Positions 19,971-63,880 of a DNA stretch of 64,000 nucleotides are shown here, in pieces (the first letter of the stretch is position 1; each line of letters begins with the position of its first letter). The stretch covers positions 34,105 to 98,104 of the forward strand of contig MFTH01000010.1 of the NCBI GenBank assembly GCA_001786765.1. The letters are read 5' to 3'. The notes beneath the pieces were generated by a model. The model saw only the letters and a list, made by a program, of their open reading frames with translations. It searched no databases and was not told the origin of the DNA. This DNA comes from Candidatus Nomurabacteria bacterium RIFCSPHIGHO2_01_FULL_37_25. Lineage in GTDB: Bacteria; Patescibacteriota; Minisyncoccia; Phycocordibacterales; UBA9973. The position numbers and the translations under genes were made by a program.

Positions 19971-20025
19971 TACTACGAAACATAAATTGAGATAACTTCT
20001 TAAGATTTCCGCATATGCAGAAATC

Positions 20026-20817
20026 TCACGAAACAATCACCGTAAACTCCCCTTTTTGTTTAACAGGGTTTTGAATTAAGTAATCTAAAATTTCTTTCGG
20101 CGTACCGGTTTTCAATTCTTCATAAATTTTTGTCAGTTCACGGGCGATACAGACTTTTTTATTGGGGCAAAATTTAGTGAGTGATTCTAAAGTTTTTAAA
20201 ATTCGATGTGGAGATTCGTAAAATACCATTGTTCTTTTTGATTCGGCAATTTCCTTAAATAAAGTTTCTCTGCCTTTTTTATGCGGTAAAAATCCTAAAA
20301 AAGTAAATTCGTGTGTCGGCAATCCAGAAGCAGAAAGCGCAGTGATAACAGCACTTGGTCCTGGTATAGGAATCACATCTACGACTATGTTAACATTCTC
20401 TGCGATAGCAGAGTTTGTTAAAAAGTTAAATTTTTCTCTAAACCCTTTAGAAGAAGGGTGAAGCGATTCAGCTTTGTTGAATTTAGCTTTTATCTCTGAG
20501 ACAAGCATAGCGCCAGGGTCTGATATCGTGGGAGTGCCAGCGTCAGAAACCAATGCCAAATTTTTCCCCCCTTCCAATAACTCAAAAATCTTTGCTAATT
20601 TACTGTTTTGTCTAGAGTTTTTCCCGGCAACATCGTCAGACGGATAGCTCATCGTTGGCGTATTAATATTGTATTTTTCTAAAATTTTTTTCGTCTGTCG
20701 CGTATCCTCACACAATATCAGATCAACACTTTTTAGTGTTTCAATCGCTCGGAGTGTGATATCCTGCAAATTCCCTATCGGCGTGGCAATAACATAAAAT
20801 TTAGACATTTTGATCAA
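20026..20817 (-). CDS. rsmI: 16S rRNA 2'-O-methyltransferase RsmI (tetrapyrrole-methylase family)
   Basis: YVIATPIGNLQDITLRAIETLKSVDLILCEDTR N-terminus. Confidence 0.85.
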   Translation of the reverse strand: MIKMSKFYVIATPIGNLQDITLRAIETLKSVDLILCEDTRQTKKILEKYNINTPTMSYPSDDVAGKNSRQNSKLAKIFELLEGGKNLALVSDAGTPTISDPGAMLVSEIKAKFNKAESLHPSSKGFREKFNFLTNSAIAENVNIVVDVIPIPGPSAVITALSASGLPTHEFTFLGFLPHKKGRETLFKEIAESKRTMVFYESPHRILKTLESLTKFCPNKKVCIARELTKIYEELKTGTPKEILDYLIQNPVKQKGEFTVIVS

Positions 20818-21379: not shown

Positions 21380-21871
21380 TTATCTCCTATATTTTCTAGC
21401 GCGCCATTTATCAGCGATTTTTACACGAGTAAGTGATCGCTCGAGTTCCGCTTCAAAATGTTCAAAATCTACATGTTCTTTATTCTGCATAGCCACCTTC
21501 ATCTCTTCTGCTCGAGTTTTTGCTTTTTCTATTTTCTCGTCTGAAATTTCAAATACATGTTCTGCAAAATCAGCCAAAATAGCCACTTCTGTCACATAAT
21601 CTAAACTTTTCCCCGACGCTTCTGGTCGGGGTTCCGACCCTTCTAGGCATCGGGATTTTATTTCCACAAAACCACCAGAAACTGCCATTGGTATATTCTC
21701 GCCTTTTGAGATTCCCACCACATCTCCCGAAGCAAGACCCACAATAAGAGGTATGTGCCCCGGCAAAACAGAGATTTCACCCTCCGTAGTGGGTATAACA
21801 ACTTCATCCACCATCTCTTCTAACACAAGACGTTCTGGGGTAACTATTTTTAATTTTAATTGTTTTGCCAT
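21380..21871 (-). CDS. atpC: ATP synthase F1 epsilon subunit (probable start MAKQLKLKIV; ORF track extends to 21949); carries a 17-aa in-frame insertion encoded by a GC-rich double hairpin
   Basis: Epsilon beta-sandwich and C-terminal helices; inserted SRCLEGSEPRPEASGKS segment encoded by 21611-21655. Confidence 0.85.
   Translation of the reverse strand: MAKQLKLKIVTPERLVLEEMVDEVVIPTTEGEISVLPGHIPLIVGLASGDVVGISKGENIPMAVSGGFVEIKSRCLEGSEPRPEASGKSLDYVTEVAILADFAEHVFEISDEKIEKAKTRAEEMKVAMQNKEHVDFEHFEAELERSLTRVKIADKWRARKYRR
21611..21655. repeat. GC-rich double-hairpin palindromic element (family P2), in-frame inside atpC
   Basis: CCCCGACgcttctgGTCGGGG plus a second CCGAC..TCGGG hairpin; ~60% GC in an AT-rich gene; copies at 47574-47618 and 36083-36122. 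Confidence 0.7.
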
Positions 21872-35676: not shown

Positions 35677-35712
35677 AAGGTTTGTTTCTATCTTTTTTAT
35701 AATGTATACAAC

Positions 35713-35860
35713 TTTGAATTACGAAACTCGTCGAAGGCATGTCTTTTTTAGGGGGTTTCGAGGCTGTCGAGCCGAGAACTTCAGGATTTTTTAAGCTTAA
35801 AAAAATCCGTACCCTAGAAAAAGACATGCCTAGAAAGAGTTTTGTAATTCATGATATACA
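35713..35860. mobile_element. MITE-like element copy 1 (~148 bp, 17-bp TIRs TTTGAATTACGAAACT / AGTTT[TC]GTAATTC[AA])
   Basis: TIRs flank a core with GGCTGTCGAGCCGAG and the perfect palindrome GGATTTTTTAAGCTTAAAAAAATCC. Confidence 0.75.
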
Positions 35861-36122: not shown

Positions 36123-36147
36123 CTACACGCTCAAAACTTGTGAATTA

Positions 36148-36300
36148 CGAAACTCGTCGAAGGCATGTCTTTTTTAGGGGGTTTCGAGGCTGTCGAGCCG
36201 AGAACTTCAGGATTTTTCAACCTGCCTGCCGGCAGGCAGGGCTTCGAAAAATCCGTATCCTAGAAAAAGACATGCCTAGAAAGAGTTTCGTAATTCAAAG
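36148..36300. mobile_element. MITE-like element copy 2 with nested CCTGCCTGCCGGCAGGCAGGG palindrome replacing the central AAGCTT hairpin
   Basis: Same TIRs and core as copy 1; 36221-36241 carries the P1 palindrome. Confidence 0.75.
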
Positions 36301-46536: not shown

Positions 46537-46570
46537 GTCTAAGATTTCCGCATATGCGGAAATCTTAGAC
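46537..46570. repeat. 34-bp perfect palindrome GTCTAAGATTTCCGCATATGCGGAAATCTTAGAC (family P3) between convergent genes
   Basis: Perfect dyad; related copies at 20003-20026 and 52081-52106 with half-site 51429-51447. Confidence 0.8.
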
Positions 46571-47181: not shown

Positions 47182-49339
47182 TAAATTTTACAGAGAGAAG
47201 TTTAGAGGCTCCATTTGCGCCTATTGTGACTCCATAAAGCACTCCAGCGCGAGACATCGTCTCGCGGTTGTGAGTAACGACAATAAGCTGTGAATGTTTA
47301 GAGAGTTTCTCTAACATATCACCGTATTTGCGCGAATTTGCTTCGTCAAGCGCGGCATCGGTTTCATCCAATACCAAAAACGGTGGCGGATTTACTTGAG
47401 ACATAGCGAAGAGAAGGGCTATAGATGTGAGCGACCTCTCTCCGCCTGAGAGCGCATGAAGCTCTTTGACTTTTTTGTGAGGAAGCTTCACATTTATTTC
47501 TATTCCCTGTTCGAGCACGGATTCTTCTTCATCAATAAAGTCTTCCTCTAATTCTATATCTTCATAATTTTTTCCCGACGCTTGCGGTCGGGACCCCGAC
47601 TCCTCTGGGCGTCGGGACTTTTTATTTTCAACAACAATAGCAAGAGAACCTGTACCCCCATCGAACATTAGAGAAAAGAATTCTTGAAATTCCACATTTA
47701 TCTTTTTGATACCCTCTTTAAACTCTACATCAATTTTCTCTTTCAATTCTGCTATAAGCTTTTGTAATGATTCAACGCTTTTTGTTAAATCTTCTAATTC
47801 TTTTGCTAAAAATTGGTCCCGTTCTGAGACTTCTTTAAATTCTTTCAAAACCTCTGCTCCACTACCAACACCGGTATCTTCTAATTTTATTTTTAGGCGT
47901 TCAATTTTTTTCTTTAGTTCTTCTTGAGTAATTTCTTCTGCATTACCCTTTTTAATTTCATAATCTTTATAAGACAAAACAAGAGCTCCAATGAGCGCGA
48001 CGCCTTCTTTGATCTCATTATGAAAAGCTTCTGTCCGATTTTTTAAATTTCCCTCTTTGATAATTACCAACTCTAAAGCCGAAGACAGCTCCTGATGCTT
48101 AACTTTGAATTTAAATTTTTCTTTTTCAAGATCACGCAAAGATTCTATTTCTTTGTTTATCTCTTGCTTTAATGCTTCTATTTGCGCATTTAATTCTTTT
48201 TCTTTATTTTCTATATCTCGCGCCTCCTCTAGAAGACTAGACTGCGAAACTTTTAATTCTATTAGTTCTTTCTCGTTATTCTCTTTATTTTCTATTTGTT
48301 CTTTATTTATTTCTCCTAATTCTTTTCCGCATGTTGGACATCTGCCTAAGAGACCTCCGAGTTTTACTCTATTATTTTTCGCTTCTATCATTCCTTCTAT
48401 TCTGCCGAGCTTGCGTTCTATCTCATTCTTTAGCACTCTAATTCCACTCATTTTTTTCTCAACAATTTTTAATTCTTCAATTTTCTTATTCCCCTTAATA
48501 GAATTGCCGACTTCAATATCATGAATCTTGGGAGTTATCTGTTTTAGTTCATCGTTAATTTTATTTCTTTCGACTAACAAGCCAGATAATTCTAAATCTA
48601 AATAAATACTTTCTTTCTTGAAATATTCTCTATAGAAAGTCGAGAGCTCAATCTGCATTTCTTTCACTTTCTCAAGCTTCTCTACTTGTTTCTTCAAAAA
48701 ATTAAAATGCGGGGCGTTTTCTCTTCGTAACATTACTACTTCTTTCATATTATTAGATGTTCGTTCCAACTTGCGCTCGGATTCTTTTATTTTATATTGA
48801 TATATCTTAAGCCCGAGCGCATCTTCCACCATTTCTTTTCTATCTTTTGGACTCGCATTTAAAATCCTATCCGCTTCGCCTTGCGAAATAATATGATGCC
48901 CAGAGGAGCCGATGTTTACAGAAGCTAAAAGATTATGAACATCTTTTAACCTTACTTCTTCTCCATTTAGAATATATTTATTTAATCCGTCAGAATGCAC
49001 CTCGCGAGAAATAATGATGGTGTCATAATTTAGATTTATATTTTCCCCCGTATCATTTTCAAGTTTAAAAATTTTATCGGAATTATTGAAATATATCGCG
49101 ACATTTGCTCTGGAGCCTTTAGACAAGCTTTTTGACCCTTTGAAAATAAGATCAAGTCCCGACTTTCCACGCATTGACTTCATTGATTGTTCACCTAAGA
49201 CATAACGAAGAGCCTCCACTACATTAGATTTTCCAGAACCATTGGGACCGACGATGCAAACAATAGGACTCTCAAATTCCAAAACAGTTTTTTGAGCAAA
49301 AGATTTAAAACCATTTATTTCAAGAGTTTTGAGCCTCAT
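47156..49339 (-). CDS. smc: Short SMC-type ATPase (727 aa) with CxxC (CPTCG) at the coiled-coil apex in place of a canonical hinge; contains an in-frame GC-rich element insertion
   Basis: SMC N-head (FKSF, GPNGSGKSN), C-head LSGGERSLTSIALLFA...LDETDAALD...LYGVT; CPTCG near residue 335 of 727; inserted SRRPEESGSRPQASGK encoded at 47574-47618. Confidence 0.75.
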   Translation of the reverse strand: MRLKTLEINGFKSFAQKTVLEFESPIVCIVGPNGSGKSNVVEALRYVLGEQSMKSMRGKSGLDLIFKGSKSLSKGSRANVAIYFNNSDKIFKLENDTGENINLNYDTIIISREVHSDGLNKYILNGEEVRLKDVHNLLASVNIGSSGHHIISQGEADRILNASPKDRKEMVEDALGLKIYQYKIKESERKLERTSNNMKEVVMLRRENAPHFNFLKKQVEKLEKVKEMQIELSTFYREYFKKESIYLDLELSGLLVERNKINDELKQITPKIHDIEVGNSIKGNKKIEELKIVEKKMSGIRVLKNEIERKLGRIEGMIEAKNNRVKLGGLLGRCPTCGKELGEINKEQIENKENNEKELIELKVSQSSLLEEARDIENKEKELNAQIEALKQEINKEIESLRDLEKEKFKFKVKHQELSSALELVIIKEGNLKNRTEAFHNEIKEGVALIGALVLSYKDYEIKKGNAEEITQEELKKKIERLKIKLEDTGVGSGAEVLKEFKEVSERDQFLAKELEDLTKSVESLQKLIAELKEKIDVEFKEGIKKINVEFQEFFSLMFDGGTGSLAIVVENKKSRRPEESGSRPQASGKNYEDIELEEDFIDEEESVLEQGIEINVKLPHKKVKELHALSGGERSLTSIALLFAMSQVNPPPFLVLDETDAALDEANSRKYGDMLEKLSKHSQLIVVTHNRETMSRAGVLYGVTIGANGASKLLSVKFNEATQIAK
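47574..47618. repeat. GC-rich double-hairpin palindromic element (family P2), in-frame inside smc
   Basis: CCCGACgcttgcgGTCGGG and CCCCGACtcctctgggcGTCGGG. Confidence 0.7.
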
Positions 49340-51319: not shown

Positions 51320-51459
51320 AATATTTATATCCTAACATATTAGAAGCGAAATGCAATTTTTTTTCAATTTTCTATAAGTTTATGATTGCCAGAAAGTAAA
51401 CGTCTTCTTATTTTTTCCCAACTTTTACGCATATGCTAGAATCTTATGAAAAAGATAAA

Positions 51460-52080
51460 TTAAAATAAATGAAAATTTTTCTTTAACTTTTCTTCTCTTA
51501 AGAAGTTTTCTACAGTCAAAACCTCCACATATTTCCCCACTCCAAAGAAATCAGCAATAAAGATTATTTCGTCTTCACAAGGATAAGGATAAATCCAAGC
51601 GGATTTTTGAAATTGGAAAAAATTTAATTCTTTCAAATGATACCGTAATGCTTCTCTACCTTTTGTAAATCTCATCGGAATATCAAACATAACTAATCTC
51701 CATTTGCTATCCCATCTTTTTGGCTTGTTAATCTTCATCAGCTCAATATCGAAAGCTCTGAGTCTCGTATTTCCTTTTTTAGTAATTTTTACTATAGTTT
51801 TTCCGTTCTTGTCAGCGACATATTCTATGAGTTTTTGACGTCTAATATTATCAATAGCGCTTTGTATTTGTTTTTTAGAATACTTTTTAGATCCTTCAAA
51901 CATCTTAAAACATTGCACTGCATTACCCATAACTCCTGCGCCCAACACCAGCATAGGCATTAAAGATACAGCCAACACACAAAGAGCAACTGTGGAAATT
52001 TTTGCTTCAGTTGTATCAGACTCTAAAAAATCTTTTAATCTCTTTGAATACCCTGCTTTATTATTTTTTCCCATATACAT
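51460..52080 (-). CDS. PaaX-family-like regulator (N-terminal TM segment, wHTH, PaaX_C-like W..W.L..FDIP...LR..L...F.....S.W..P) bracketed by inverted half-palindromes
   Basis: RWDSKWRLVMFDIPMRFTKGREALRYHLKELNFFQFQKSAWIYP matches the PaaX C-terminal pattern; IRs at 51429-51447 and 52081-52099. Confidence 0.45.
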   Translation of the reverse strand: MYMGKNNKAGYSKRLKDFLESDTTEAKISTVALCVLAVSLMPMLVLGAGVMGNAVQCFKMFEGSKKYSKKQIQSAIDNIRRQKLIEYVADKNGKTIVKITKKGNTRLRAFDIELMKINKPKRWDSKWRLVMFDIPMRFTKGREALRYHLKELNFFQFQKSAWIYPYPCEDEIIFIADFFGVGKYVEVLTVENFLREEKLKKNFHLF

Positions 52081-52107
52081 AAGATTCTAGCATATGCGGA
52101 AATCTTA

Positions 52108-52245
52108 GGTAAATAATGCCTCCTTTTTATAGCTCATATGGAGGGCAGGGGCTTGCGCCCCTGCCCTAGAGAGGAAGGGGAAAGTCGATTGAATGGGCTA
52201 GGGGGGTCAGCAACTATTGTTGCTGACCCCCCCCTCCCAAAATAT
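52108..52245 (+). other. GC-rich highly structured element upstream of thrS (two perfect long hairpins inside a GGAGGG/CCCTCC outer stem)
   Basis: GGGCAGGGGCttgcGCCCCTGCCC (10 bp) and GGGGGGTCAGCAACtattGTTGCTGACCCCCC (14 bp). Confidence 0.5.
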
Positions 52246-52264
52246 TATTAACAAAAAATAGATA

Positions 52265-54043
52265 ATGTGTGATATTATAAATAACATAAATTATATGAAC
52301 GAAAATAATAAACTGCAAAATTTAAGACATACTTTAGCCCACTTACTCGCCGCATCTATAAGGGCAATTTATAAAGATTCTCAAAATGCCATTGGTCCGG
52401 CCATAGACGATGGCTTTTATCAGGATTTTGAGTTGGTTGAACCAATTTCCGAAAATGATTTACCAAAAATAGAGAAAAAAATGCGAGAGCTTTTGAAAAA
52501 GTGGAACGCTTTTGAAAAACGAGAAGTAACCCCGCAAGAAGCAAAAAAAGAGTTTGCTTGGAATAAATACAAAGTTGAATTAATTGAAGAATTTGCAAAA
52601 GACGGGAAAAATCTGACTTTCTACACTTGTGGTGATTTTATAGATTTGTGCAAAGGAGGACATTTAGAAAATCCTAGTAAAGAACTTCCGTTTGACGCTT
52701 TCAAACTAGACCGTGTGGCCGGAGCTTACTGGCGTGGAGATGAAAAGAATAAAATGCTTACGCGTATTTATGGTTTAGCCTTTGAAACCAAAGAAGAATT
52801 AGACGCATACATAATGCAAAGAATAGAAGCAGAGAAAAGAGACCACAGAGAGTTGGGCAAAAAATTAGAATTATTCACTTTTGATGAAGAGGTCGGGAAG
52901 GGTCTGCCTATTTGGTTGCCAAAGGGAAATATAATTAAAGAAGAATTAGAAAATTGGGCAAAAGAGACAGAAAAAAAATGGAATTACCAAAGAGTCACGA
53001 CCCCAATAATCACAAAAGAAAATTTGTTTTACACCTCTGGGCATTTGCCTTTATACAAAGAAAGCATGTATGCGCCTATATCTATCGAAGAAGAAAATTA
53101 CTATATAAAACCGATGAATTGTCCTTTTCATCATAAAGTATTTTCTGCCCTTCCCAGAAGTTATAAAGATTTGCCTCTTCGTCTGGCAGAATACGGATGG
53201 TGTCATAGATATGAAGATTCTGGAAGTCTTTTTGGGCTGATGAGAGTGCGTGGAATGCAAATGAATGATGCTCACATATATACAACACAAGAGCAAGCGA
53301 TAAATGAATTTGTGGATGTAATAAGATTGCACGAATATTATTACAAAGTGCTTGATATAGATAAATATGAGATGGAATTGGCTTTGCGAGATCCAAAAAA
53401 AATAGATAAATATCATGGCGAAGAAAAAGATTGGAAAATGGCAGAAGAAATGACAATAAAAGCTATGGAACTCTCAGGAGTGCCGTTTAAGATAGTCCAT
53501 GAAGGAGCCGCCTTTTACGGACCAAAAATGGATTTCCAAATATATTCTTCTATCGGCAGATCTTTCACTGCTTCAACAAATCAATTAGATTTATACATGG
53601 GTAAAAGATTCAAGTTAGAATATACAGACAAAGATGGGTCTAGAAAAACACCATTTATAATACACCGAGCTCCGCTTGGAACCCACGAAAGATTTATTGG
53701 ATTTTTAATAGAACACTTTGGCGGCGCCTTCCCTCTTTGGCTTTCGCCTGTACAGGTCAAGGTCATACCCGTGCGGGAAAATCATAATGAATACGCGAGA
53801 AAAATTTTTGAATCATTAAGAGAAAATAATATCCGCGTAGAACTTGACGAAGGAGACCAAAACCTAGGCACGAAAGTTCGTGACGCTAAAAATAACAAGC
53901 TACCCTACTGGATAGTCGTCGGTGATAAAGAAATTGAAGCGAATAAAATAACTTTAGAATCACGCGATTCCGGTCAGCTTGGGCAAATGAGTCGCGAAGA
54001 ACTCATAAAAAAACTTTTGGAAGAAATAAAGAATAAAAAATAA
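52265..54043 (+). CDS. thrS: Threonyl-tRNA synthetase lacking the N-terminal TGS domain
   Basis: Editing/SAD HxxxH (HTLAHLL), class II motifs, anticodon-binding domain. Confidence 0.9.
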   Translation: MCDIINNINYMNENNKLQNLRHTLAHLLAASIRAIYKDSQNAIGPAIDDGFYQDFELVEPISENDLPKIEKKMRELLKKWNAFEKREVTPQEAKKEFAWNKYKVELIEEFAKDGKNLTFYTCGDFIDLCKGGHLENPSKELPFDAFKLDRVAGAYWRGDEKNKMLTRIYGLAFETKEELDAYIMQRIEAEKRDHRELGKKLELFTFDEEVGKGLPIWLPKGNIIKEELENWAKETEKKWNYQRVTTPIITKENLFYTSGHLPLYKESMYAPISIEEENYYIKPMNCPFHHKVFSALPRSYKDLPLRLAEYGWCHRYEDSGSLFGLMRVRGMQMNDAHIYTTQEQAINEFVDVIRLHEYYYKVLDIDKYEMELALRDPKKIDKYHGEEKDWKMAEEMTIKAMELSGVPFKIVHEGAAFYGPKMDFQIYSSIGRSFTASTNQLDLYMGKRFKLEYTDKDGSRKTPFIIHRAPLGTHERFIGFLIEHFGGAFPLWLSPVQVKVIPVRENHNEYARKIFESLRENNIRVELDEGDQNLGTKVRDAKNNKLPYWIVVGDKEIEANKITLESRDSGQLGQMSREELIKKLLEEIKNKK

Positions 54044-54047
54044 CCTA

Positions 54048-54190
54048 GTTTGAATTACGAAACTCTTACTTGGCATATCTTTTTCTAGGGTACAGATTTT
54101 TTGAAGCTTAAAAAATCTTGAAGTTTGCTCGCCGTCGCTCGCAAAACCCCCTAAAAAAGACATGCCTGCGACAAGTTTCGTAATTCAAAG
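54048..54190. mobile_element. MITE-like element copy 3 (opposite orientation, ~85% identity to copy 1), followed by a degenerate partial copy at ~54205-54275
   Basis: Same 17-bp TIRs TTTGAATTACGAAACT...AGTTTCGTAATTCAAAG and AAGCTT-centred internal hairpin. Confidence 0.75.
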
Positions 54191-55709: not shown

Positions 55710-55747
55710 ACTTGTATATTATAACAACAAATAAGCGGCAAAAATAC

Positions 55748-55952
55748 TTGACTTTTTCATTTTATTGTGCTATACTATAAGGGTAATAAGGTCTTTGAAA
55801 ATATAATATGTTTCGAGTTATTCTTGAGTGGTTCGCCCATCAAGTAGCTAAAGAAATTTAGCTCTTTGCTCGGCGAACGACTCGAAAAATAAATCCATTC
55901 CGACGAAAGTCGGAATACAACATGCGTCTATGAGGCGCAAAGGGAGAAGGAA
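55748..55952 (+). promoter_or_regulatory. Promoter (TTGACT-17-TATACT) plus ~170-nt structured leader, copy 1
   Basis: Near-identical promoter and colinear leader at 57351-57556, with compensatory stem changes. Confidence 0.65.
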
Positions 55953-56672
55953 ATGGAAACCAAGAAAAGACGGCGGAATCCCTGGGGCCCAGTTTTAAAA
56001 AATCCAAAGGCAACACAGGACACTGCAGTTGGGACTGCAGTTCCACCGCCACAGAAGAAACAAAAGATGGTGGAATGGCTGGTGGGGGGGATATTTATTT
56101 TTCTGGTCCTGGTATGCGGATTCTACTTTGAGTTCGCGTACCGAGTCCTGGCTGTAGTTGGGCTCGGGATCACCATGGCTGTACTCATGGTACAGTCTAT
56201 CTTCTCCGAGAAAGAGGTGAGTTTTTGGACCACCTTGGGAAAGGTTGTTGGAAACAACAACTGGATTTACTGGTGGATCTTCTTGTCTGGGATGGCTTGT
56301 CTCCTGATAGGATTTTTCTCAAACAACATTCCGAGAAAAATCTATACGGTGCTTGTCATAATAGACAATCCTGTAAGTCCCGGTAATTGGAGTAAGGCCG
56401 CAGAGAGTCTTACTCTAGAGGACCCTTTTAAAAACAACGACGACAACCCCTTCCTCGCAACAAACGAAGGAACTCAAGGCAGTTCCCTCTTCGCAGGAGA
56501 GGAGGCGAAATGGGGTTTCGCCGGTCTTCAATTCCTCTTGCTGGCTCTGCCAGCAAGGTTCGTCTCTTACTGGGACGAAATGAAGAGGAAGGCGAAAAAA
56601 AAGGAGAAGGGCCAGAGCTGGATTAGCTGGTTCTTCAGCCACGTCCTCTTTGAATTAATCTGGCCTGGGTAG
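55953..56672 (+). CDS. Hypothetical polytopic membrane protein (GC-rich island)
   Basis: GC-rich ORF with SD AAGGGAGAAGGAA before the ATG; several TM helices. Confidence 0.5.
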   Translation: METKKRRRNPWGPVLKNPKATQDTAVGTAVPPPQKKQKMVEWLVGGIFIFLVLVCGFYFEFAYRVLAVVGLGITMAVLMVQSIFSEKEVSFWTTLGKVVGNNNWIYWWIFLSGMACLLIGFFSNNIPRKIYTVLVIIDNPVSPGNWSKAAESLTLEDPFKNNDDNPFLATNEGTQGSSLFAGEEAKWGFAGLQFLLLALPARFVSYWDEMKRKAKKKEKGQSWISWFFSHVLFELIWPG

Positions 56673-56693
56673 GTAATAGAGGAGACCAAAAAT

Positions 56694-57206
56694 ATGCCGA
56701 GAATCTTCATAATGTTGGTGGTGTTGGTGCTTTCAATTTACTCTTTTGGATGCGGGGGGGAGAATAAGTATGAAAAGACCATAAGTTCTGCTGAAAAGCA
56801 GGACAGGGATAGCCCCCCTGCAAATTATGAAGAGGCGCAAAAACGCTTCAACCAAGTAGCCAAGTATCTTGACTACTTGGAGAAGCATCCGGAGAGTTCT
56901 TCCCCAGAACTCACAGCAAGGGCAAAGGCCCTGCTGGATAGCCGTAAAGCGGCGGCTATGGCTAAAGGATGGAATGTCGCCGCCGGAGCGCTAGAGAAGG
57001 TAGTGCAAAAGGCGAAGGAAGTGGCGAAGGAAGTGCTGGGCACCATTGGCGTCACAGACCTACCCAGCGCTGCCAAAAAGGTCGAGGAGGCAAGAGATTG
57101 GGTCCTTAGGGACCCGGAAAGAGAAGAACAGTTCTCCTGCAAGGATATCGACGGTAACCCCGTCGACGTCACGAAGGAAGGTTTTGCCCATCTCTGCGTA
57201 AGGTAG
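56694..57206 (+). CDS. Hypothetical lipoprotein (GC-rich island)
   Basis: Signal peptide with lipobox-like ...YSFGC, helical body. Confidence 0.5.
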   Translation: MPRIFIMLVVLVLSIYSFGCGGENKYEKTISSAEKQDRDSPPANYEEAQKRFNQVAKYLDYLEKHPESSSPELTARAKALLDSRKAAAMAKGWNVAAGALEKVVQKAKEVAKEVLGTIGVTDLPSAAKKVEEARDWVLRDPEREEQFSCKDIDGNPVDVTKEGFAHLCVR

Positions 57207-57264
57207 AAAGGAGGAAAAAACTTACGCAGGTGGGGAGGGTGCGCGACCCTATAACGCGCAAATT

Positions 57265-57298
57265 GGGCGGACTCAGAAATGAGTACCGCCCTTTTTTT
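57265..57298 (+). terminator. Rho-independent terminator
   Basis: GGGCGGactcagaaatgagtaCCGCCC plus TTTTTTT. Confidence 0.75.
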
Positions 57299-57350
57299 AT
57301 TTTAATATTATAAAATAAGGATAAAATAGCTTTTTTGTCAAGATTAAACC

Positions 57351-57556
57351 TTGACTTTTTCATTTTATTGTGCTATACTATAAAGGTAATCAGGTCTTTG
57401 AAAATATAATATGTTCTGAGTCATTCTTGAGCAGTTTGCCTATCAAGTAGCTAAAGAGATTTGGCTCTTTGCTTGGCAAACGAGCTCAAGGAATGGAAAC
57501 TTCTCTGGTGAAAGCCAGAGTACAAATGCGTCATCTTGACGCGAAAGGAGTCCACA
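57351..57556 (+). promoter_or_regulatory. Promoter (TTGACT-17-TATACT) plus ~170-nt structured leader, copy 2
   Basis: See copy 1; the ORF-track ORF 57469-57702 lies inside the leader and is probably not coding. Confidence 0.65.
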
Positions 57557-58654
57557 ATGTGGACATTGATTATTTTATTAGCGGCCAGTTACTGGGCATC
57601 CACTGGGATACCCGGGTGGCCGTTGTCAACATGGCAGACGTCCCTGGTGGCGGGAGCCCTATATGGGCTCTATCGACTGGCGTGCTGGATGCAGTGGATT
57701 GATGGTGGCCATCATACCACCACACCAGTTAGCACCGCCGCCGGACACAGTGGAGGAAGTGGTGGTATGTGGGGAGGGATACCAAAGCTAGGACTTTGGT
57801 ACGTTCTCACAACCGCCCTAATGATGATAGGTACATACATAGTCAACGTGCAAAACGTTGACATGTTTATGTATTTCATAACATTAGGGGGACGGTCGTG
57901 GATTTATCCTTTATCCACAACGGATGCTATCCTCTGGACGTCTACCCTGGCTCTCATGTCAGCGGTCGCCTGGCTAGCAGTGGAGGGGAGATGGCGACCG
58001 GCTGGATGGATATTCGGGATAACCTTTATAACTCTCCTTGTTTTTAGGGAGTTCGGTCCGTTCTTCGAGGCGATCCGGCCGATCCCGAGCTCCGGTCCTG
58101 TCACGCCGGGCATCGGCGAAAGTCAAGAGAGGGCGGACCTGAACGCCGCCCTAGTCAAGCGAGGAGCGCTCCCCGTAGCGGGGGAGGTGGTGGCCAAGTT
58201 TGGGTTCGGGGAGGTAGACCCAAAGGAAGGTTTCCTCCTCGGCCTGGTTTCCCGAGGGTGGGTGTGGTGGATGGGCGCACCCACCTACGACCCCAAGAAG
58301 GGGGCAGTCCTGGGGAGATTGTATCAGTTTTGGGAATGGGCGGCTGGAGAAAGCCCACTCCCATCTCGCGCGCCGGCGGTAGTGTTTTCCCCCACCCCTG
58401 CGCCGGCGGGACCGCTGAGAAGCTGTTCCGTCCCCTGCGAGATGTGGGTGGATTGGGAGGAGGACATCAAAACGGGTGGGCGAGACGTTTTGGTCCTCTT
58501 CCACGGAAAGGAGGAATGGTTCCGCCTTTCCGGAGGGAATGAAAAGGATATCCCCAGGGAGGTTTTCTCCCCCGGCAAGGCAAAGTTTGCTTTGCCGGAC
58601 GACGGCGACGACGCGTCGCCCATAATGGTAAAAATTTTCGCGGCGAAAAAATAA
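57557..58654 (+). CDS. Hypothetical polytopic membrane protein with Pro/Gly-rich C-terminal region (GC-rich island)
   Basis: ATG at 57557 preceded by AAAGGAG; ~8 TM helices; ORF-track start 57536 is a TTG upstream. Confidence 0.5.
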   Translation: MWTLIILLAASYWASTGIPGWPLSTWQTSLVAGALYGLYRLACWMQWIDGGHHTTTPVSTAAGHSGGSGGMWGGIPKLGLWYVLTTALMMIGTYIVNVQNVDMFMYFITLGGRSWIYPLSTTDAILWTSTLALMSAVAWLAVEGRWRPAGWIFGITFITLLVFREFGPFFEAIRPIPSSGPVTPGIGESQERADLNAALVKRGALPVAGEVVAKFGFGEVDPKEGFLLGLVSRGWVWWMGAPTYDPKKGAVLGRLYQFWEWAAGESPLPSRAPAVVFSPTPAPAGPLRSCSVPCEMWVDWEEDIKTGGRDVLVLFHGKEEWFRLSGGNEKDIPREVFSPGKAKFALPDDGDDASPIMVKIFAAKK

Positions 58655-58740
58655 AAATTTTTACCGCGAGCGCCTGACCAGCGCAAACGAGGTCAGAAAG
58701 GAGAAAGGCCACAATCGCGTCTGGCCAACGCACACAAAAG

Positions 58741-58773
58741 GGCGTCTCAACGAGACGCCCTTTTCTATTTTTA
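58741..58773 (+). terminator. Rho-independent terminator
   Basis: GGCGTCTCaacgGAGACGCC plus TTTTCTATTTTT. Confidence 0.8.
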
Positions 58774-58783
58774 CTAAACAGAA

Positions 58784-59107
58784 TTATGGATAATCAGGTA
58801 AATCTACTATCCCTTGTTCAGGATCTATCCCTTCTATGTTTGGGAAGGTGCTCAATATAACTCCAAGAATAGTCCAGACACCCATCATGATAGTCAATCC
58901 GACAACACCCCAAAGCATATGGCTCTTCCCGGTTGTCTTTTTCTCGTCATTACTCTGATTGTTAATGAATTGAAACATACCGAAAAGAAAATACGCCAAC
59001 GCTAAAGCGAAGAGCAACAGAATAAGCGGGTTTATAATTTCTCTATTAACATTCGCTATAAAACTATTCACGCTCGCATAAGCTATCTTTGTTTCAAATA
59101 AATCCAT
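58784..59107 (-). CDS. TrbC/VirB2-like pilin-family small membrane protein (paralog 1, no signal peptide)
   Basis: Two TM helices separated by a short charged loop; shares its core with the four downstream paralogs. Confidence 0.5.
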   Translation of the reverse strand: MDLFETKIAYASVNSFIANVNREIINPLILLLFALALAYFLFGMFQFINNQSNDEKKTTGKSHMLWGVVGLTIMMGVWTILGVILSTFPNIEGIDPEQGIVDLPDYP

Positions 59108-59118
59108 TGATTCTAAAA

Positions 59119-59511
59119 CTAGAAAGGAGTGGTTGGAAAAGTGATAGTTTGAGGATTTGTATCAATTCCAAAAGTGTTTGTTAGAATCTTTACGAGTCCC
59201 CATACGGTAACAATAACAGCCAAGCCAATTATGCCAAATATTATTCTGTCTCGTCCTTTCTTTTTTGCTTCTGCATCATCTCCAATAACATAAGAAATTA
59301 CTCCCCATACAAAGTAAATGACCCCTAAGATAATTATAATAGGAACAATTTGAGTAAAAAGTTGAGCTATCTTACATAAGATAGCTTCAATTGTGCCTGT
59401 ACCCACACTAGCACAATTAGTAGAAGTACCCCCCGTCGTCACCTGCGCCAATGCCATAACAGGCGCTAGACCTAAAACAAAACCCGACAAAACAATTAAT
59501 TTCTTTTTCAT
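59119..59511 (-). CDS. TrbC/VirB2-like pilin-family protein (paralog 2, with signal peptide)
   Basis: Signal peptide, then IIILGVIYFVWGVISYVIGDDAEAKKKGRDRIIFGIIGLAVIVTVWGLV core. Confidence 0.55.
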   Translation of the reverse strand: MKKKLIVLSGFVLGLAPVMALAQVTTGGTSTNCASVGTGTIEAILCKIAQLFTQIVPIIIILGVIYFVWGVISYVIGDDAEAKKKGRDRIIFGIIGLAVIVTVWGLVKILTNTFGIDTNPQTITFPTTPF

Positions 59512-59622
59512 CCCGTTTAGAAATTATGATATCCGTACATTACCTTTAGGTATATAAAGAAACACAATTCTTACTTTTATAATTTCTCCCGTTTTCTAAA
59601 TTTCTAACGGGATTCAAAACGA
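59512..59622 (-). promoter_or_regulatory. 5' leader inverted repeat (CCCGTTAGAAATT...AATTTCTAAACGGG-ATG) of pilin paralog 2
   Basis: 13/14-bp arms enclosing ~80 nt; 3' arm abuts the ATG. Confidence 0.45.
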
Positions 59623-59726
59623 CTTTGATAATAATTAATAATACTTAATAAAGAACTACCATGCTATTGTACCACAAACAGTATCAAAAAAGAAAGCAAG
59701 CCCCGTCTGAATAAAGACGCTGAAAG

Positions 59727-60302
59727 TTATGGGGGTGGTGTCTTAACTTGTGGAATAAAACTAGTGTTAATCCCAAAGGTAGTACCTAGTATTTCAACCA
59801 ACCCCCAAACGGAAACCATCACCGTCAAAGCAATCAACCCCCAAAGCATAAATTGCTTGCCTTTTTGCTTTTTCGCCTCTTCGTCGCTTTTGATAACATA
59901 CTGCACCACACCCCAGACAAACATCACCATCGCTAAAGCGAAAATAAGAGGAATGATAGCGTTGTTAATAATGGTGGTGATATAACACACAAGGTCTTGA
60001 AATCTCGGATAGGGACCAAGAGTTTGGCAAGTGTCTATGGGCTCAAAGACGGGCCCAGTTGCATTTGTAAGCCCGAAAGTTTCAGCAATAATGCTTACAA
60101 GTCCCCATACAGACACAATAACAGTCAAGCCAATGATGCCATATATTATTCTATCTCTCCCTTTCTTTTTTGCTTCATCACCGCCCCCTATAACATACTG
60201 CACCACGCCCCAGACAAAATAGACCACTCCTAAAGCAACCAAAACAGGAATGATTGAACTAAGAATATTATACGCCTCAAATATTAAATCCTCTATGGTC
60301 AT
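59727..60302 (-). CDS. Tandem-duplicated TrbC/VirB2-like pilin-family protein (two complete core modules in one ORF)
   Basis: Two copies of ...LGVVYFVWGVVQYVIGGGDEAKKKGRDRIIYGIIGLTVIVSVWGLV... / ...LAMVMFVWGVVQYVIKSDEEAKKQKGKQFMLWGLIALTVMVSVWGLV... Confidence 0.55.
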   Translation of the reverse strand: MTIEDLIFEAYNILSSIIPVLVALGVVYFVWGVVQYVIGGGDEAKKKGRDRIIYGIIGLTVIVSVWGLVSIIAETFGLTNATGPVFEPIDTCQTLGPYPRFQDLVCYITTIINNAIIPLIFALAMVMFVWGVVQYVIKSDEEAKKQKGKQFMLWGLIALTVMVSVWGLVEILGTTFGINTSFIPQVKTPPP

Positions 60303-60320
60303 GATTTTAATTCTTAAATT

Positions 60321-60731
60321 TTACGGTCCAAGCTCGGTAACGGTAGCTGATATGAGTTCTGCGATAGCCCACGACCCTAAGAGTATCGCCGCGCCGATCA
60401 AAGTATATAAGAGAGCGTTTTTAGCTTTAGTTAATTTTTCTGAATTGCCCATCGCTGATACAAAAAGAAAACCGCAATAAATGACAGCCAGAGCGACAAT
60501 GGGAATGCCTATTTTTAGCACACCTTCTAAAAGAACCTTGATAAATTCCTGAATGGTATTTGTGCTTATTGGGTTGCAAATTTTATCTTTACAAAGGTCA
60601 GAAGGAGTAGTACCCTGAATAGGTTCAGGAGAAGTAGTCTCTGCAAAAGAAAGAGCTGGCGCCGTAATCAAAAAAGCCATTAAAATTATTCGAAATAAAT
60701 TTTTAGTCAGATTTTTCTTAAAAAAATTCAT
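60321..60731 (-). CDS. TrbC/VirB2-like pilin-family protein (paralog 4; likely start MNFFKKNL)
   Basis: Signal peptide, core IPIVALAVIYCGFLFVSAMGNSEKLTKAKNALLYTLIGAAILLGSWAIAELI. Confidence 0.5.
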   Translation of the reverse strand: MNFFKKNLTKNLFRIILMAFLITAPALSFAETTSPEPIQGTTPSDLCKDKICNPISTNTIQEFIKVLLEGVLKIGIPIVALAVIYCGFLFVSAMGNSEKLTKAKNALLYTLIGAAILLGSWAIAELISATVTELGP

Positions 60732-60759
60732 ATTTAGATTACTTATATTATACATCATT

Positions 60760-61170
60760 TCAAAAAAATCTATCAATATCCTTATAACCTAAAATTGATA
60801 GTAAGGTTTTAACAATAAGCCAAGCGGCGGCGGCAAGGACAAGCCCGATAACGGCATTAGTAAAAATATTCTTTGCTTTTCCCCTAGCTTCTGTACTACC
60901 GCCAGAAGTTACGAGTTTAAAACCAGCGTAAAAGAACATTATGGCGGCGATAGGTATAGCCATATAGAAAAGAATAAAATCAATAATATTGTTTATAAGC
61001 TTCATAAAAGCGGTGAAATTGCATGGCTCCGCAATTGTTCCACTATCATCTGGAGTATTATTGCAAGGAACCAACCCTTTTAATGGATCAAAAGCGGCAA
61101 AAGAAATAACAGGCGCCACAAGCATTAAAAACACAGCGAGGGAAATAAAAAATTTTGTTGTTTTTGTCAT
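60760..61170 (-). CDS. TrbC/VirB2-like pilin-family protein (paralog 5)
   Basis: Signal peptide, core IPIAAIMFFYAGFKLVTSGGSTEARGKAKNIFTNAVIGLVLAAAAWLIV. Confidence 0.5.
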   Translation of the reverse strand: MTKTTKFFISLAVFLMLVAPVISFAAFDPLKGLVPCNNTPDDSGTIAEPCNFTAFMKLINNIIDFILFYMAIPIAAIMFFYAGFKLVTSGGSTEARGKAKNIFTNAVIGLVLAAAAWLIVKTLLSILGYKDIDRFF

Positions 61171-63150: not shown

Positions 63151-63212
63151 CTATACATTATAGTATTAAAAAACTTAATTTGCATTGAAGTTATTAACAA
63201 AAAACCTTGATG

Positions 63213-63880
63213 TCAAAGAGACACTTTGACATAATACAGTGAATGAGTAATAGAGATTATAAAAAATTTAATATTGGATCAATAGCTCACATTTACAACA
63301 GAGGAAATAACAAGGAAAAAATATTTTTTGATGATCAAGATTACAGAGCTTTTCTTTTTAGACTTGCTTTAGTTTTAGGATTTGACCAAAAAGAATTACA
63401 AAACGAAAACTTGTTAAGTATGCCTTATTCCAGAATACGAATTGAATTTAAAGGAAAAAATAAATTCAAAATACATGCTTTTTGTCTTATGCCAAATCAT
63501 TTTCATTTATTAATTGAGCAAGTTGGAGATACCTCAATTTCAAAATTAATTTCAAAAGTCTGTTCAAGTTATTCTAAATATATAAATAAAAAATATAAAC
63601 GTGTTGGACATACTTTTCAAGATTGTTTTAAAGCTGTAATTATTGAGAATAATCCTCAACTAATGTGGGTTTCGTCTTATATCCACATGAATGCAGTAAA
63701 AGATGGTTTGGTAAAACACCCTTCTGAATATTTATGGAGTAGTTACAACGATTACACTTCCCTCAGAAATTTACCGTTAGTTACAAAAGAATTATTAATA
63801 GAAACTTTTGGCGATGAGAAAAATTTTATAGAACAAACATTGAATTTTAGTGTCAAAGTGTCTCTTTGACACCCTTACCT
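63213..63880 (+). mobile_element. IS200/IS605-type element carrying a RAYT-like Y1 transposase, flanked by complementary hairpins
   Basis: Left hairpin TGTCAAAGagacacTTTGACA (63215-63235); right GTGTCAAAGtgtctcTTTGACAC (63855-63877), the reverse complement of the left. Confidence 0.7.
63243..63869 (+). CDS. tnpA: IS200-like / REP-associated tyrosine transposase (HuH Y1)
   Basis: HuH motif LMPNHFHLL, catalytic Tyr region (WSSYNDY), ~200-aa RAYT-length form. Confidence 0.78.
   Translation: MSNRDYKKFNIGSIAHIYNRGNNKEKIFFDDQDYRAFLFRLALVLGFDQKELQNENLLSMPYSRIRIEFKGKNKFKIHAFCLMPNHFHLLIEQVGDTSISKLISKVCSSYSKYINKKYKRVGHTFQDCFKAVIIENNPQLMWVSSYIHMNAVKDGLVKHPSEYLWSSYNDYTSLRNLPLVTKELLIETFGDEKNFIEQTLNFSVKVSL

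Follow-up and report, generated by a model that had tools for sequence, protein, structure and literature searches.

Twin GC-rich palindromes before thrS in a Nomurabacteria genome: a tentative case for a young, species-specific DNA insertion

What is the strongly folded, GC-rich element that stands directly upstream of thrS in a Nomurabacteria genome (Paceibacteria, candidate phyla radiation (CPR))? It lies in a 64-kb stretch of DNA of 36% GC, hereafter the window, between a gene for a PaaX-like protein (PaaX_M domain) and thrS, which encodes threonyl-tRNA synthetase (ThrRS). 'Candidatus Nomurabacteria bacterium RIFCSPHIGHO2_01_FULL_37_25' has an identical ThrRS, and contig MFTZ01000008.1 of GCA_001786875.1 matches the region at 100% identity. 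An earlier note on this DNA placed the element between these two genes, as domain annotation confirms, and considered a small RNA, a leader regulator of thrS or a palindromic-element family. We tentatively favor, at a probability of about 0.4, the reading that the core of the element (52142-52238) is young, species-specific, insertional palindromic DNA at the seam between the PaaX-like cassette and the thrS promoter, with no dedicated role for thrS and acting at most as a passive hairpin barrier.

The structure itself is real and statistically exceptional. The core, about 97 bp long and about 66% GC in a genome of 36% GC, consists of two palindromic hairpins, H1 and H2, which are joined by a linker and followed by a short tail (Table 1), and neither stem contains a G-U pair or a mismatch. 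The earlier note had counted 10 and 14 bp in the two hairpins and had placed them inside an outer GGAGGG/CCCTCC stem. The 14 bp of H2 are correct, but H1 has 11 bp, the noted GGGCAGGGGC covering 52143-52152 only. Likewise, GGAGGG (52140-45) and CCCTCC (52232-37) are complementary, but their stem would need bases that H1 and H2 use, and it is missing from the minimum-energy folds, which lengthen H2 by UGGG/CCCA. The region 52100-52260 folds with -73.2 kcal/mol on the plus strand (z = -6.4) and -73.1 kcal/mol on the minus strand (z = -6.8), and on each strand 0 of 200 shuffles was as good. H1 and H2 are the only perfect GC-rich hairpins with a stem of at least 10 bp in the whole window, and 100 block shuffles gave none; among the 50-nt folds of the window, H2 comes first in stability (-37.4 kcal/mol) and H1 ranks eighth. 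CTAG borders the linker on both sides (52166-69 and 52198-201), an alternative inner stem of CCCTAG with CTAGGG is possible at the linker edges, and both units read 5'-CTAGGG...CCCTCC-3' on opposite strands, a pattern known from this single example. Because perfect stems let both strands fold equally well, the palindromes seem to belong to the DNA level.

The core lies between two blocks of homology. Homology to the PaaX-like cassette of locus L064 extends to about 52141, and homology to the ancestral thrS promoter starts at about 52236-39. Because of this gap between the two blocks, the core is probably DNA gained at or after integration of the cassette into the spacer between rpmF and thrS. 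The cassette loci compared were those of the window, L064, L065, L066/L069 and L070. In the four contexts with both ends readable (window, L064, L065 and L066/L069) the same inverted repeats, (C)CGCATATGCTA(G/T)AAT, flank the PaaX-like gene, and beside the cassettes in the four other genomic contexts no GC-rich hairpins were found. The PaaX-like protein has a winged helix-turn-helix (wHTH), a Cas2-like PaaX_M domain and an N-terminal hydrophobic, possibly transmembrane segment. It is conserved at 70-85% identity across many Nomurabacteria and Zambryskibacteria, and orthologues of 80-85% identity reside in unrelated neighborhoods (rpsB/tsf, sigma-70, iPGM/PRPP synthetase). Each inverted repeat is half of an operator-like pseudo-palindrome of ~26 bp (AAGATTnnnGCAT followed by ATGCnnnAATCTT) and carries an extended -10 promoter, one of them sense and the other antisense. 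The predicted promoter of the PaaX-like gene (TTTACC-18-TAGAAT, 52113-52084, minus strand) is proximal and probably leaderless, and it is conserved in all orthologous cassettes.

On the thrS side we compared 34 thrS loci from related species and, in addition, the closest sister that could be retrieved, L071; for the ThrRS proteins that are closer than L071 (96% and 90% identity), no contig is recorded. None of the 34 relatives' loci contains the element. In L071, whose ThrRS is 88% identical, the rpmF-thrS spacer is compact and of the ancestral kind, with neither a PaaX-like gene nor hairpins. In the usual layout of the relatives, rpmF and thrS are divergent with about 100 nt between them, rpmF has a conserved extended -10 promoter, and the thrS promoter takes the form AAA(A/T)GCAA...TGTG(C/G)TAT(G/T)AT. 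Because the ATG follows this promoter by only 6-8 nt, thrS appears essentially leaderless there. The stretch of the window that is homologous to the relatives' thrS promoter is 52239-52278, and the ATG at 52295, at which the N-terminus aligns with those of the relatives, is a likelier start than that at 52265. The element is therefore placed upstream of the likely thrS promoter. The twin hairpins thus fill the 134-nt spacer between two divergent -35 boxes (52108-13 and 52248-53), and since they are upstream of both core promoters they probably stand outside the main mRNAs of thrS and the PaaX-like gene. A different GC-rich insert occupies the same rpmF-thrS spacer in another lineage (L026).

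At 51345-51390, adjoining rpmF and pointing rightwards into the cassette, lies another sequence (GAAATGCAATTTT...TATGAT) similar to the ancestral thrS promoter region. This suggests that the old promoter region took up the cassette together with the GC-rich core, or was duplicated by them.

These promoter positions bear directly on the idea, raised in the earlier note, that the element is a leader regulator of thrS, either an operator of the E. coli thrS type, to which ThrRS binds, or a new, riboswitch-like attenuator in place of a T-box. The element does directly precede a gene for an aminoacyl-tRNA synthetase, one that T-boxes control in some relatives, and plus-strand transcription from promoter-like sites further upstream is plausible. 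However, the element also precedes the conserved thrS promoter, thrS has effectively no leader in those relatives that lack a T-box, and the locus of the closest sister lacks the element. An operator of the E. coli type is also at odds with loops of 4 nt (UUGC and UAUU) in place of 7-nt anticodon-like loops, with an element that ends 57 nt before the AUG, and with a structure that involves neither a Shine-Dalgarno sequence nor the start codon. An attenuator is at odds with the lack of a U-tract, of an alternative pairing tied to thrS, of conservation and of any Rfam match. The proposal is thus weakened, and we regard it as highly improbable.

The element is not a T-box riboswitch, as the earlier note had already suspected from the letters. 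In six relatives (L016, L017, L019, L020, L028 and L032) thrS is preceded by a T-box leader whose specifier is ACC (Thr) and whose terminator has a U-tract. A hidden Markov model (HMM) built from these six leaders and run with nhmmer found no match in the window, a permissive Rfam scan (E<=10) of 51950-52400 returned no T-box but just spurious microRNA and small-RNA hairpin matches far below threshold, and the element contains no T-box sequence like GGTGGAACCGCG, no Stem I and no specifier. Together with the lack of a U-tract and a promoter that lies 3' of the element, this led us to reject the identity. The likeness to thrS T-box leaders (RF00230) is confined to the position 5' of thrS and to a weak similarity to the terminator arms of relatives. 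This similarity allows another proposal, namely that the ancestor had a T-box leader and that the element consists of remodeled pieces of its terminator arms. The terminator of L020, GGGCAGGGG-N8-CCCCTGCCC, has a 9-bp stem in common with H1; the terminator arms CCCCGCCCTAG...CTAGGGCGGGG of L016 and L019 resemble 52158-69 and 52198-206 (the CCCTAG/CTAGGG arms); and the apex of the L016 antiterminator, CAACTATTAAGTTGC, resembles that of H2. In a randomization that preserved the architecture, these resemblances on the plus strand reached p of about 0.03-0.05. These values are borderline and uncorrected for several statistics, however, and the order of the pieces is unlike that of a T-box, with the element upstream instead of downstream of the conserved promoter. 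Moreover, no T-box is present in the relatives nearest to the window (78-88% ThrRS identity), which have lost it and have a compact, apparently leaderless thrS divergent from rpmF. Descent from a T-box platform therefore seems improbable to us.

No other known RNA class accounts for the element, so the earlier note's description of it as unexplained held with respect to RNA families. At gathering scores, Rfam yielded three tRNAs and no other family over the window, and a tRNA/tmRNA scan gave nothing at the site. A 37-aa open reading frame (ORF; 52138-52251) was rejected as coding, being nowhere called as a gene and its translation sharing no words with a protein database of 5.8 billion sequences. 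A replication origin was also rejected, as GC skew merely tracks the coding strand. Intrinsic (Rho-independent) terminators are likewise GC-rich, perfect stem-loops with tetraloops, and hairpins identical to H1 are found between genes in phage contigs. In contrast to terminators, the element has no U-tract directly 3' of H1 or H2 on either strand (the tails read UAGAGAGG and CCUCCCAAAA on the plus strand and UAGCCCAU and CCAUAUGA on the minus strand) and stands between divergent gene starts instead of after a gene. The terminator scan found 0 terminator-like sites in it, whereas real terminators of the same genome carry T-runs.

A small RNA, another suggestion of the earlier note, found no support: there is no terminator and no conservation, homologues that could offer covariation are lacking, and the seven promoter-like matches barely exceed the 4.8 expected from shuffles. 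One version of the idea places an RNA element on the minus strand. Such an RNA would be a structured 5' untranslated region of the PaaX-like gene made from a distal promoter, or a small RNA with a C/U-rich seed resembling an anti-Shine-Dalgarno sequence. There, the H1 loop, TTGC on the plus strand, reads GCAA, a GNRA tetraloop closed by C-G; the pyrimidine-rich linker CCCAUUCAAUCGACUUUCCCCUUCCUCUCU pairs with the downstream AGGAGG in the minimum-energy fold; and promoter-like sites occur at 52319-52290 (10/12 matches) and 52273-52244. But AGGAGG is 40 nt from the AUG of the PaaX-like gene and is followed by no ORF at a suitable spacing, and the proximal leaderless promoter of this gene is conserved in all cassettes whereas the hairpins are not. 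Considering also the weak promoter matches and the missing terminator, we hold a minus-strand RNA to be improbable. In the most novel of these regulatory readings, the twin hairpin would be a new cis-regulatory element, restricted to the lineage, to which control of thrS or of the neighboring PaaX-like regulator passed once the T-box was lost. ThrRS or the PaaX-like protein with its wHTH and Cas2-like domains might bind it as an RNA or a DNA hairpin, or it might be a new small RNA whose C/U-rich seed resembles an anti-Shine-Dalgarno sequence. This we consider very unlikely.

The strongest functional alternative to an insertion without a role is that the element is kept as a hairpin barrier or insulator, which stops or stabilizes read-through transcripts between the divergent units. 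On the plus strand, transcripts that start at the left inverted repeat and at the older thrS-promoter-like copy (about 51345-51390) would cross the PaaX-like gene in antisense and reach H1 and H2 just ahead of the thrS promoter. In the opposite direction, minus-strand antisense transcripts from the thrS side would encounter H2 and then H1 ahead of the PaaX-like promoter. The left repeat holds a promoter-like site, TTCCCA-16-TAGAAT with an extended -10 TG, which is directed rightwards through the cassette to the element and thrS and has the same extended -10 as the PaaX-like promoter. The hairpins, which are the strongest local structures of the window, lie exactly between the two -35 boxes. 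Twin GC-rich palindromes between genes also resemble the bacterial interspersed mosaic elements (BIMEs) of E. coli. Against a barrier stand the lack of a U-tract, unlike the terminators of this genome, the absence of any evidence of conservation, and the other PaaX-like cassettes, which have the same outward promoter-like repeat without such hairpins. We consider a selected barrier unlikely, though the best of the functional explanations.

The contig breaks among assemblies of the species were not taken as a sign of mobility. We recovered 16 assemblies, all at least 99.5% identical throughout. The element is identical in the seven that read through it, and the other 9/16 end inside it or at its edges (52099, 52147, 52153, 52176, 52186, 52208, 52222, 52236, 52247 and 52280); such elements thus break short-read assemblies. 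One contig tip, that of L077, shows 17 mismatches in 125 nt, 15 of them transversions, which rise in number with distance past the hairpins and destroy the otherwise invariant operator. Inverted repeats and GGC motifs are known to trigger sequence-specific Illumina errors (PMC3141275). Because the mismatches of L077 fit this kind of error, the contig breaks are most simply explained as a sequencing or assembly artefact of the hairpins. A presence/absence indel and an invertible segment were both rejected, as the sole 'variant allele', that of L077, fits this error pattern. The break at exactly 52099, found in four contigs from three assemblies, is incompletely accounted for by artefact.

Searches for further copies of the element found none. 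The stems of H1 and H2 have no second copy in the window, which is about 9% of the source genome if a ~0.7-Mb genome typical for the group is assumed, and 261 kb of relatives' DNA contains no copy of the element. The H1 stem matched eight IMG/VR contigs, three Staphylococcus phages and one plasmid, all of them generic intergenic hairpins with unrelated flanks, and the linker is absent from IMG/VR. H2 had one match in the JGI metagenomes, an ordinary terminator of a GC-rich contig; this collection evidently lacks the species, as the thrS locus itself was not returned, and scans for copies and deletion alleles there carry little information. No called protein contains a translation of the element. 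Thus, the additional copies at unrelated loci that the earlier note had named as evidence for a mere repeat did not appear in the window, relatives, IMG/VR, phages, plasmids or JGI, at a genome coverage of about 9%, while a palindromic-element family, its third option, remains live. In this option the element would belong to a dispersed mobile family like the repetitive extragenic palindromes (REPs) and BIMEs or the miniature inverted-repeat transposable elements (MITEs), with its other copies in the unsampled 90% of the genome.

The element recalls the REPs and BIMEs of Enterobacteria and Pseudomonads, which are associated with REP-associated tyrosine transposases (RAYTs). It is composed of short, extragenic, GC-rich palindromic units, two different ones, inverted relative to each other, on either side of a linker of some 30 nt. 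REP units have a conserved 5' tetranucleotide, GTAG; in the single example here the units start with CTAG, in CTAGGG opposite a 3' CCCTCC. A RAYT-like Y1 transposase gene is encoded in the same window. The element differs in being single-copy in all data searched, in having perfect stems whereas REP stems are imperfect, and in being unrelated to the inverted hairpins that flank the RAYT-like gene (TGTCAAAG-AGACA-CTTTGACA and TGTCAAAG-TGTCT-CTTTGACA, together TGTCAAAG-N5-CTTTGACA), so that it does not match the flanks of a cognate RAYT. The flanking hairpin itself recurs elsewhere: another species has a tandem doublet of it (L064, 4299-4345), and a strain variant (L004/L075) has one copy downstream of thrS. 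The same genome does hold several palindromic families, but with one copy known we judge membership of a dispersed family to be improbable.

With Rickettsia palindromic elements (RPEs) the element has in common that it is a palindromic insert and that its bacterial host genome is AT-rich and reduced. Unlike the in-frame double hairpins of atpC and smc in the window, which resemble RPEs, it is intergenic and has no sequence in common with them. Similar in kind are the GC clusters of yeast mitochondria (PMC4478555) and the double-hairpin elements of Allomyces mtDNA (Paquin et al. 2000, cited in PMC4478555), which form multi-copy families with short flanking direct repeats (AG/ACT) in organelle genomes. 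Like these, the element is a GC-rich, hairpin-forming insert in an AT-rich genome and is variably present among close relatives, and composites of such elements can arise by merging of hairpin units. It is unlike them in having one copy here and no clear flanking repeat, and no repeated mobile family was found in the data searched. We class the element as a single-copy, species-specific orphan of the kind 'GC-rich palindromic inserts of AT-rich genomes'; its architecture is like that of a BIME or GC cluster, but it lacks the copy number of any family.

The window contains other palindromic inserts. A MITE-like family of about 145-165 nt, with terminal inverted repeats of ~45 nt starting CTTTGAATTACGAAACTC, is present in at least 2.5 copies (Table 1). 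Its 36-kb copy has an additional, perfect GC palindrome of 20 nt, CCTGCCTGCCGGCAGGCAGG, at the apex (36221-36240). Because this palindrome is missing from the 54-kb paralogue, this genome evidently does acquire GC-rich palindromes by insertion. Hairpins of another GC-rich family, CCGAC-N4-12-GTCGG, occur seven times (16384, 21613, 36084, 36104, 47575, 47596 and 55900) against 0.06 expected. Double hairpins of 46 nt from this family are inserted in frame into both atpC (21606-21655, KSRCLEGSEPRPEASGK) and smc (47573-47618, KSRRPEESGSRPQASGK); the smc segment amounts to about 10 residues extra compared with 15 homologues. Kinship of H1 or H2 with the RAYT hairpins, the MITE-like family or the CCGAC family was rejected, as they share no sequence.

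Taken together, an insertion without a dedicated function agrees with the perfect Watson-Crick stems, the strand symmetry, the missing RNA-type signals and conservation, and a site beyond the predicted transcripts. Two perfect DNA palindromes would have been inserted exactly at the seam of the PaaX-like cassette and the ancestral thrS promoter. Because the genome visibly accumulates palindromic inserts, their origin is likeliest to be insertional or selfish palindromic DNA, or else filler captured upon integration of the cassette. Their sole likely physical effect would be passive: read-through RNA, from the rightward site of the left inverted repeat on the plus strand or from the thrS side on the minus strand, would fold into very stable hairpins, and the DNA could extrude cruciforms between the divergent promoters.

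Several points weigh against this proposal. With a single known copy, membership of a mobile family is unproven, and the ends of the element have no terminal inverted repeats, direct repeats or target-site duplications, in contrast to MITEs. Since GC-rich stems should decay under AT-biased mutation in a genome of 36% GC, their perfection implies either youth or selection, and these two are inseparable without diverged copies, the 16 assemblies being nearly identical. The promoters are predicted, not mapped. Some plus-strand RNA likely crosses the element from the promoter-like site in the left repeat, so that a role at the RNA level is conceivable.

Table 1. Features of the element, its flanks and related inserts in the window
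Feature	Coordinates	Strand	Basis or remark
MITE-like solo end	35712-35729		
MITE-like copy	36138-36300		next to tRNA-Ile
Left 21-nt inverted repeat of PaaX-like cassette	51428-51448	+	repeat comparison; promoter scan
PaaX-like gene (PaaX_M-domain protein)	51460-52080	-	protein domain annotation
Right 21-nt inverted repeat, with extended -10 TGCTAGAAT of PaaX-like promoter	52078-52098	-	repeat comparison; promoter scan
AT-rich 5' flank of PaaX-like cassette, with outer operator half-site GGAAATCTTAG and -35 TTTACC (52108-13)	52099-52141	-	homologous to L064 cassette flank
H1, perfect 11-bp GC-rich palindromic hairpin, AGGGCAGGGGC-TTGC-GCCCCTGCCCT	52142-52167		
Linker, 33 nt	52168-52200		purine-rich on plus strand, C/U-rich on minus strand
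H2, perfect 14-bp palindromic hairpin, GGGGGGTCAGCAAC-TATT-GTTGCTGACCCCCC	52201-52232		
CCTCCC tail, right end of GC-rich core	52233-52238		complementary to GGAGGG 52140-45
Predicted thrS promoter, -35 TTAACA (52248-53), TG (52270-71), -10 TATTAT (52273-78)	52248-52278	+	aligned with relatives' thrS promoters
thrS, 582 aa from ATG 52295	52295-54043	+	ThrRS domain; N-terminus alignment to relatives
MITE-like copy	54048-54190		directly 3' of thrS stop
RAYT-like Y1 (IS200-like) transposase	63243-63869 (with flanks 63211-63871)		Pfam Y1_Tnp 1.4e-13; NCBIfam REP_Tyr_transpos 6.8e-19, 68 bits, under the 80-bit cut-off

Some further observations concern the PaaX-like cassette. Contig L061 (ERZ27254756 k141_2360467) joins window position 52098 (+) to 51427 (-), the junction expected of an inverted cassette. 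Inversion is possible, as read from this 119-nt contig tip; the inverted repeats would yield an identical junction through a fold-back artefact. A perfect 34-nt palindrome of the PaaX-like-operator family (GTCTAAGATTTCCGCAT followed by ATGCGGAAATCTTAGAC, 46537-46570) lies between the convergent PGA_cap/S11-peptidase and maf genes, and a degenerate copy was observed at 20000-20029. Judging by their sequence, these palindromes may mark a PaaX-like regulon or a hairpin element.

Two other features lie beyond thrS. A 138-nt direct repeat, 90% identical (55747-55883 and 57350-57487), carries a consensus promoter, TTGACT-17-TGCTATACT, and a structured leader, and its copies precede two ORFs of unknown function (55953-56672 and 57536-58654); it may be a cis-regulatory leader. 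A GC-rich island at about 56000-59000 (0.45-0.48; window, 0.36), with ORFs that match nothing in Pfam, adjoins a type IV secretion system (T4SS)-pilin gene cluster (58784-61170) and is probably acquired DNA.

If the element did regulate thrS, it would exemplify how an unrelated structure takes the place of a T-box within one narrow lineage. If the more ordinary explanation by insertion is true, the locus is a caution that a conspicuous structure beside an aminoacyl-tRNA synthetase gene need not be a leader regulator. The by-products of this study, namely the PaaX-like cassette, the in-frame double hairpins and a RAYT-like gene in a CPR genome, probably merit more attention than the element. 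Its wider context, in which several families of palindromic inserts share one small Nomurabacteria genome, is more interesting than the element itself.

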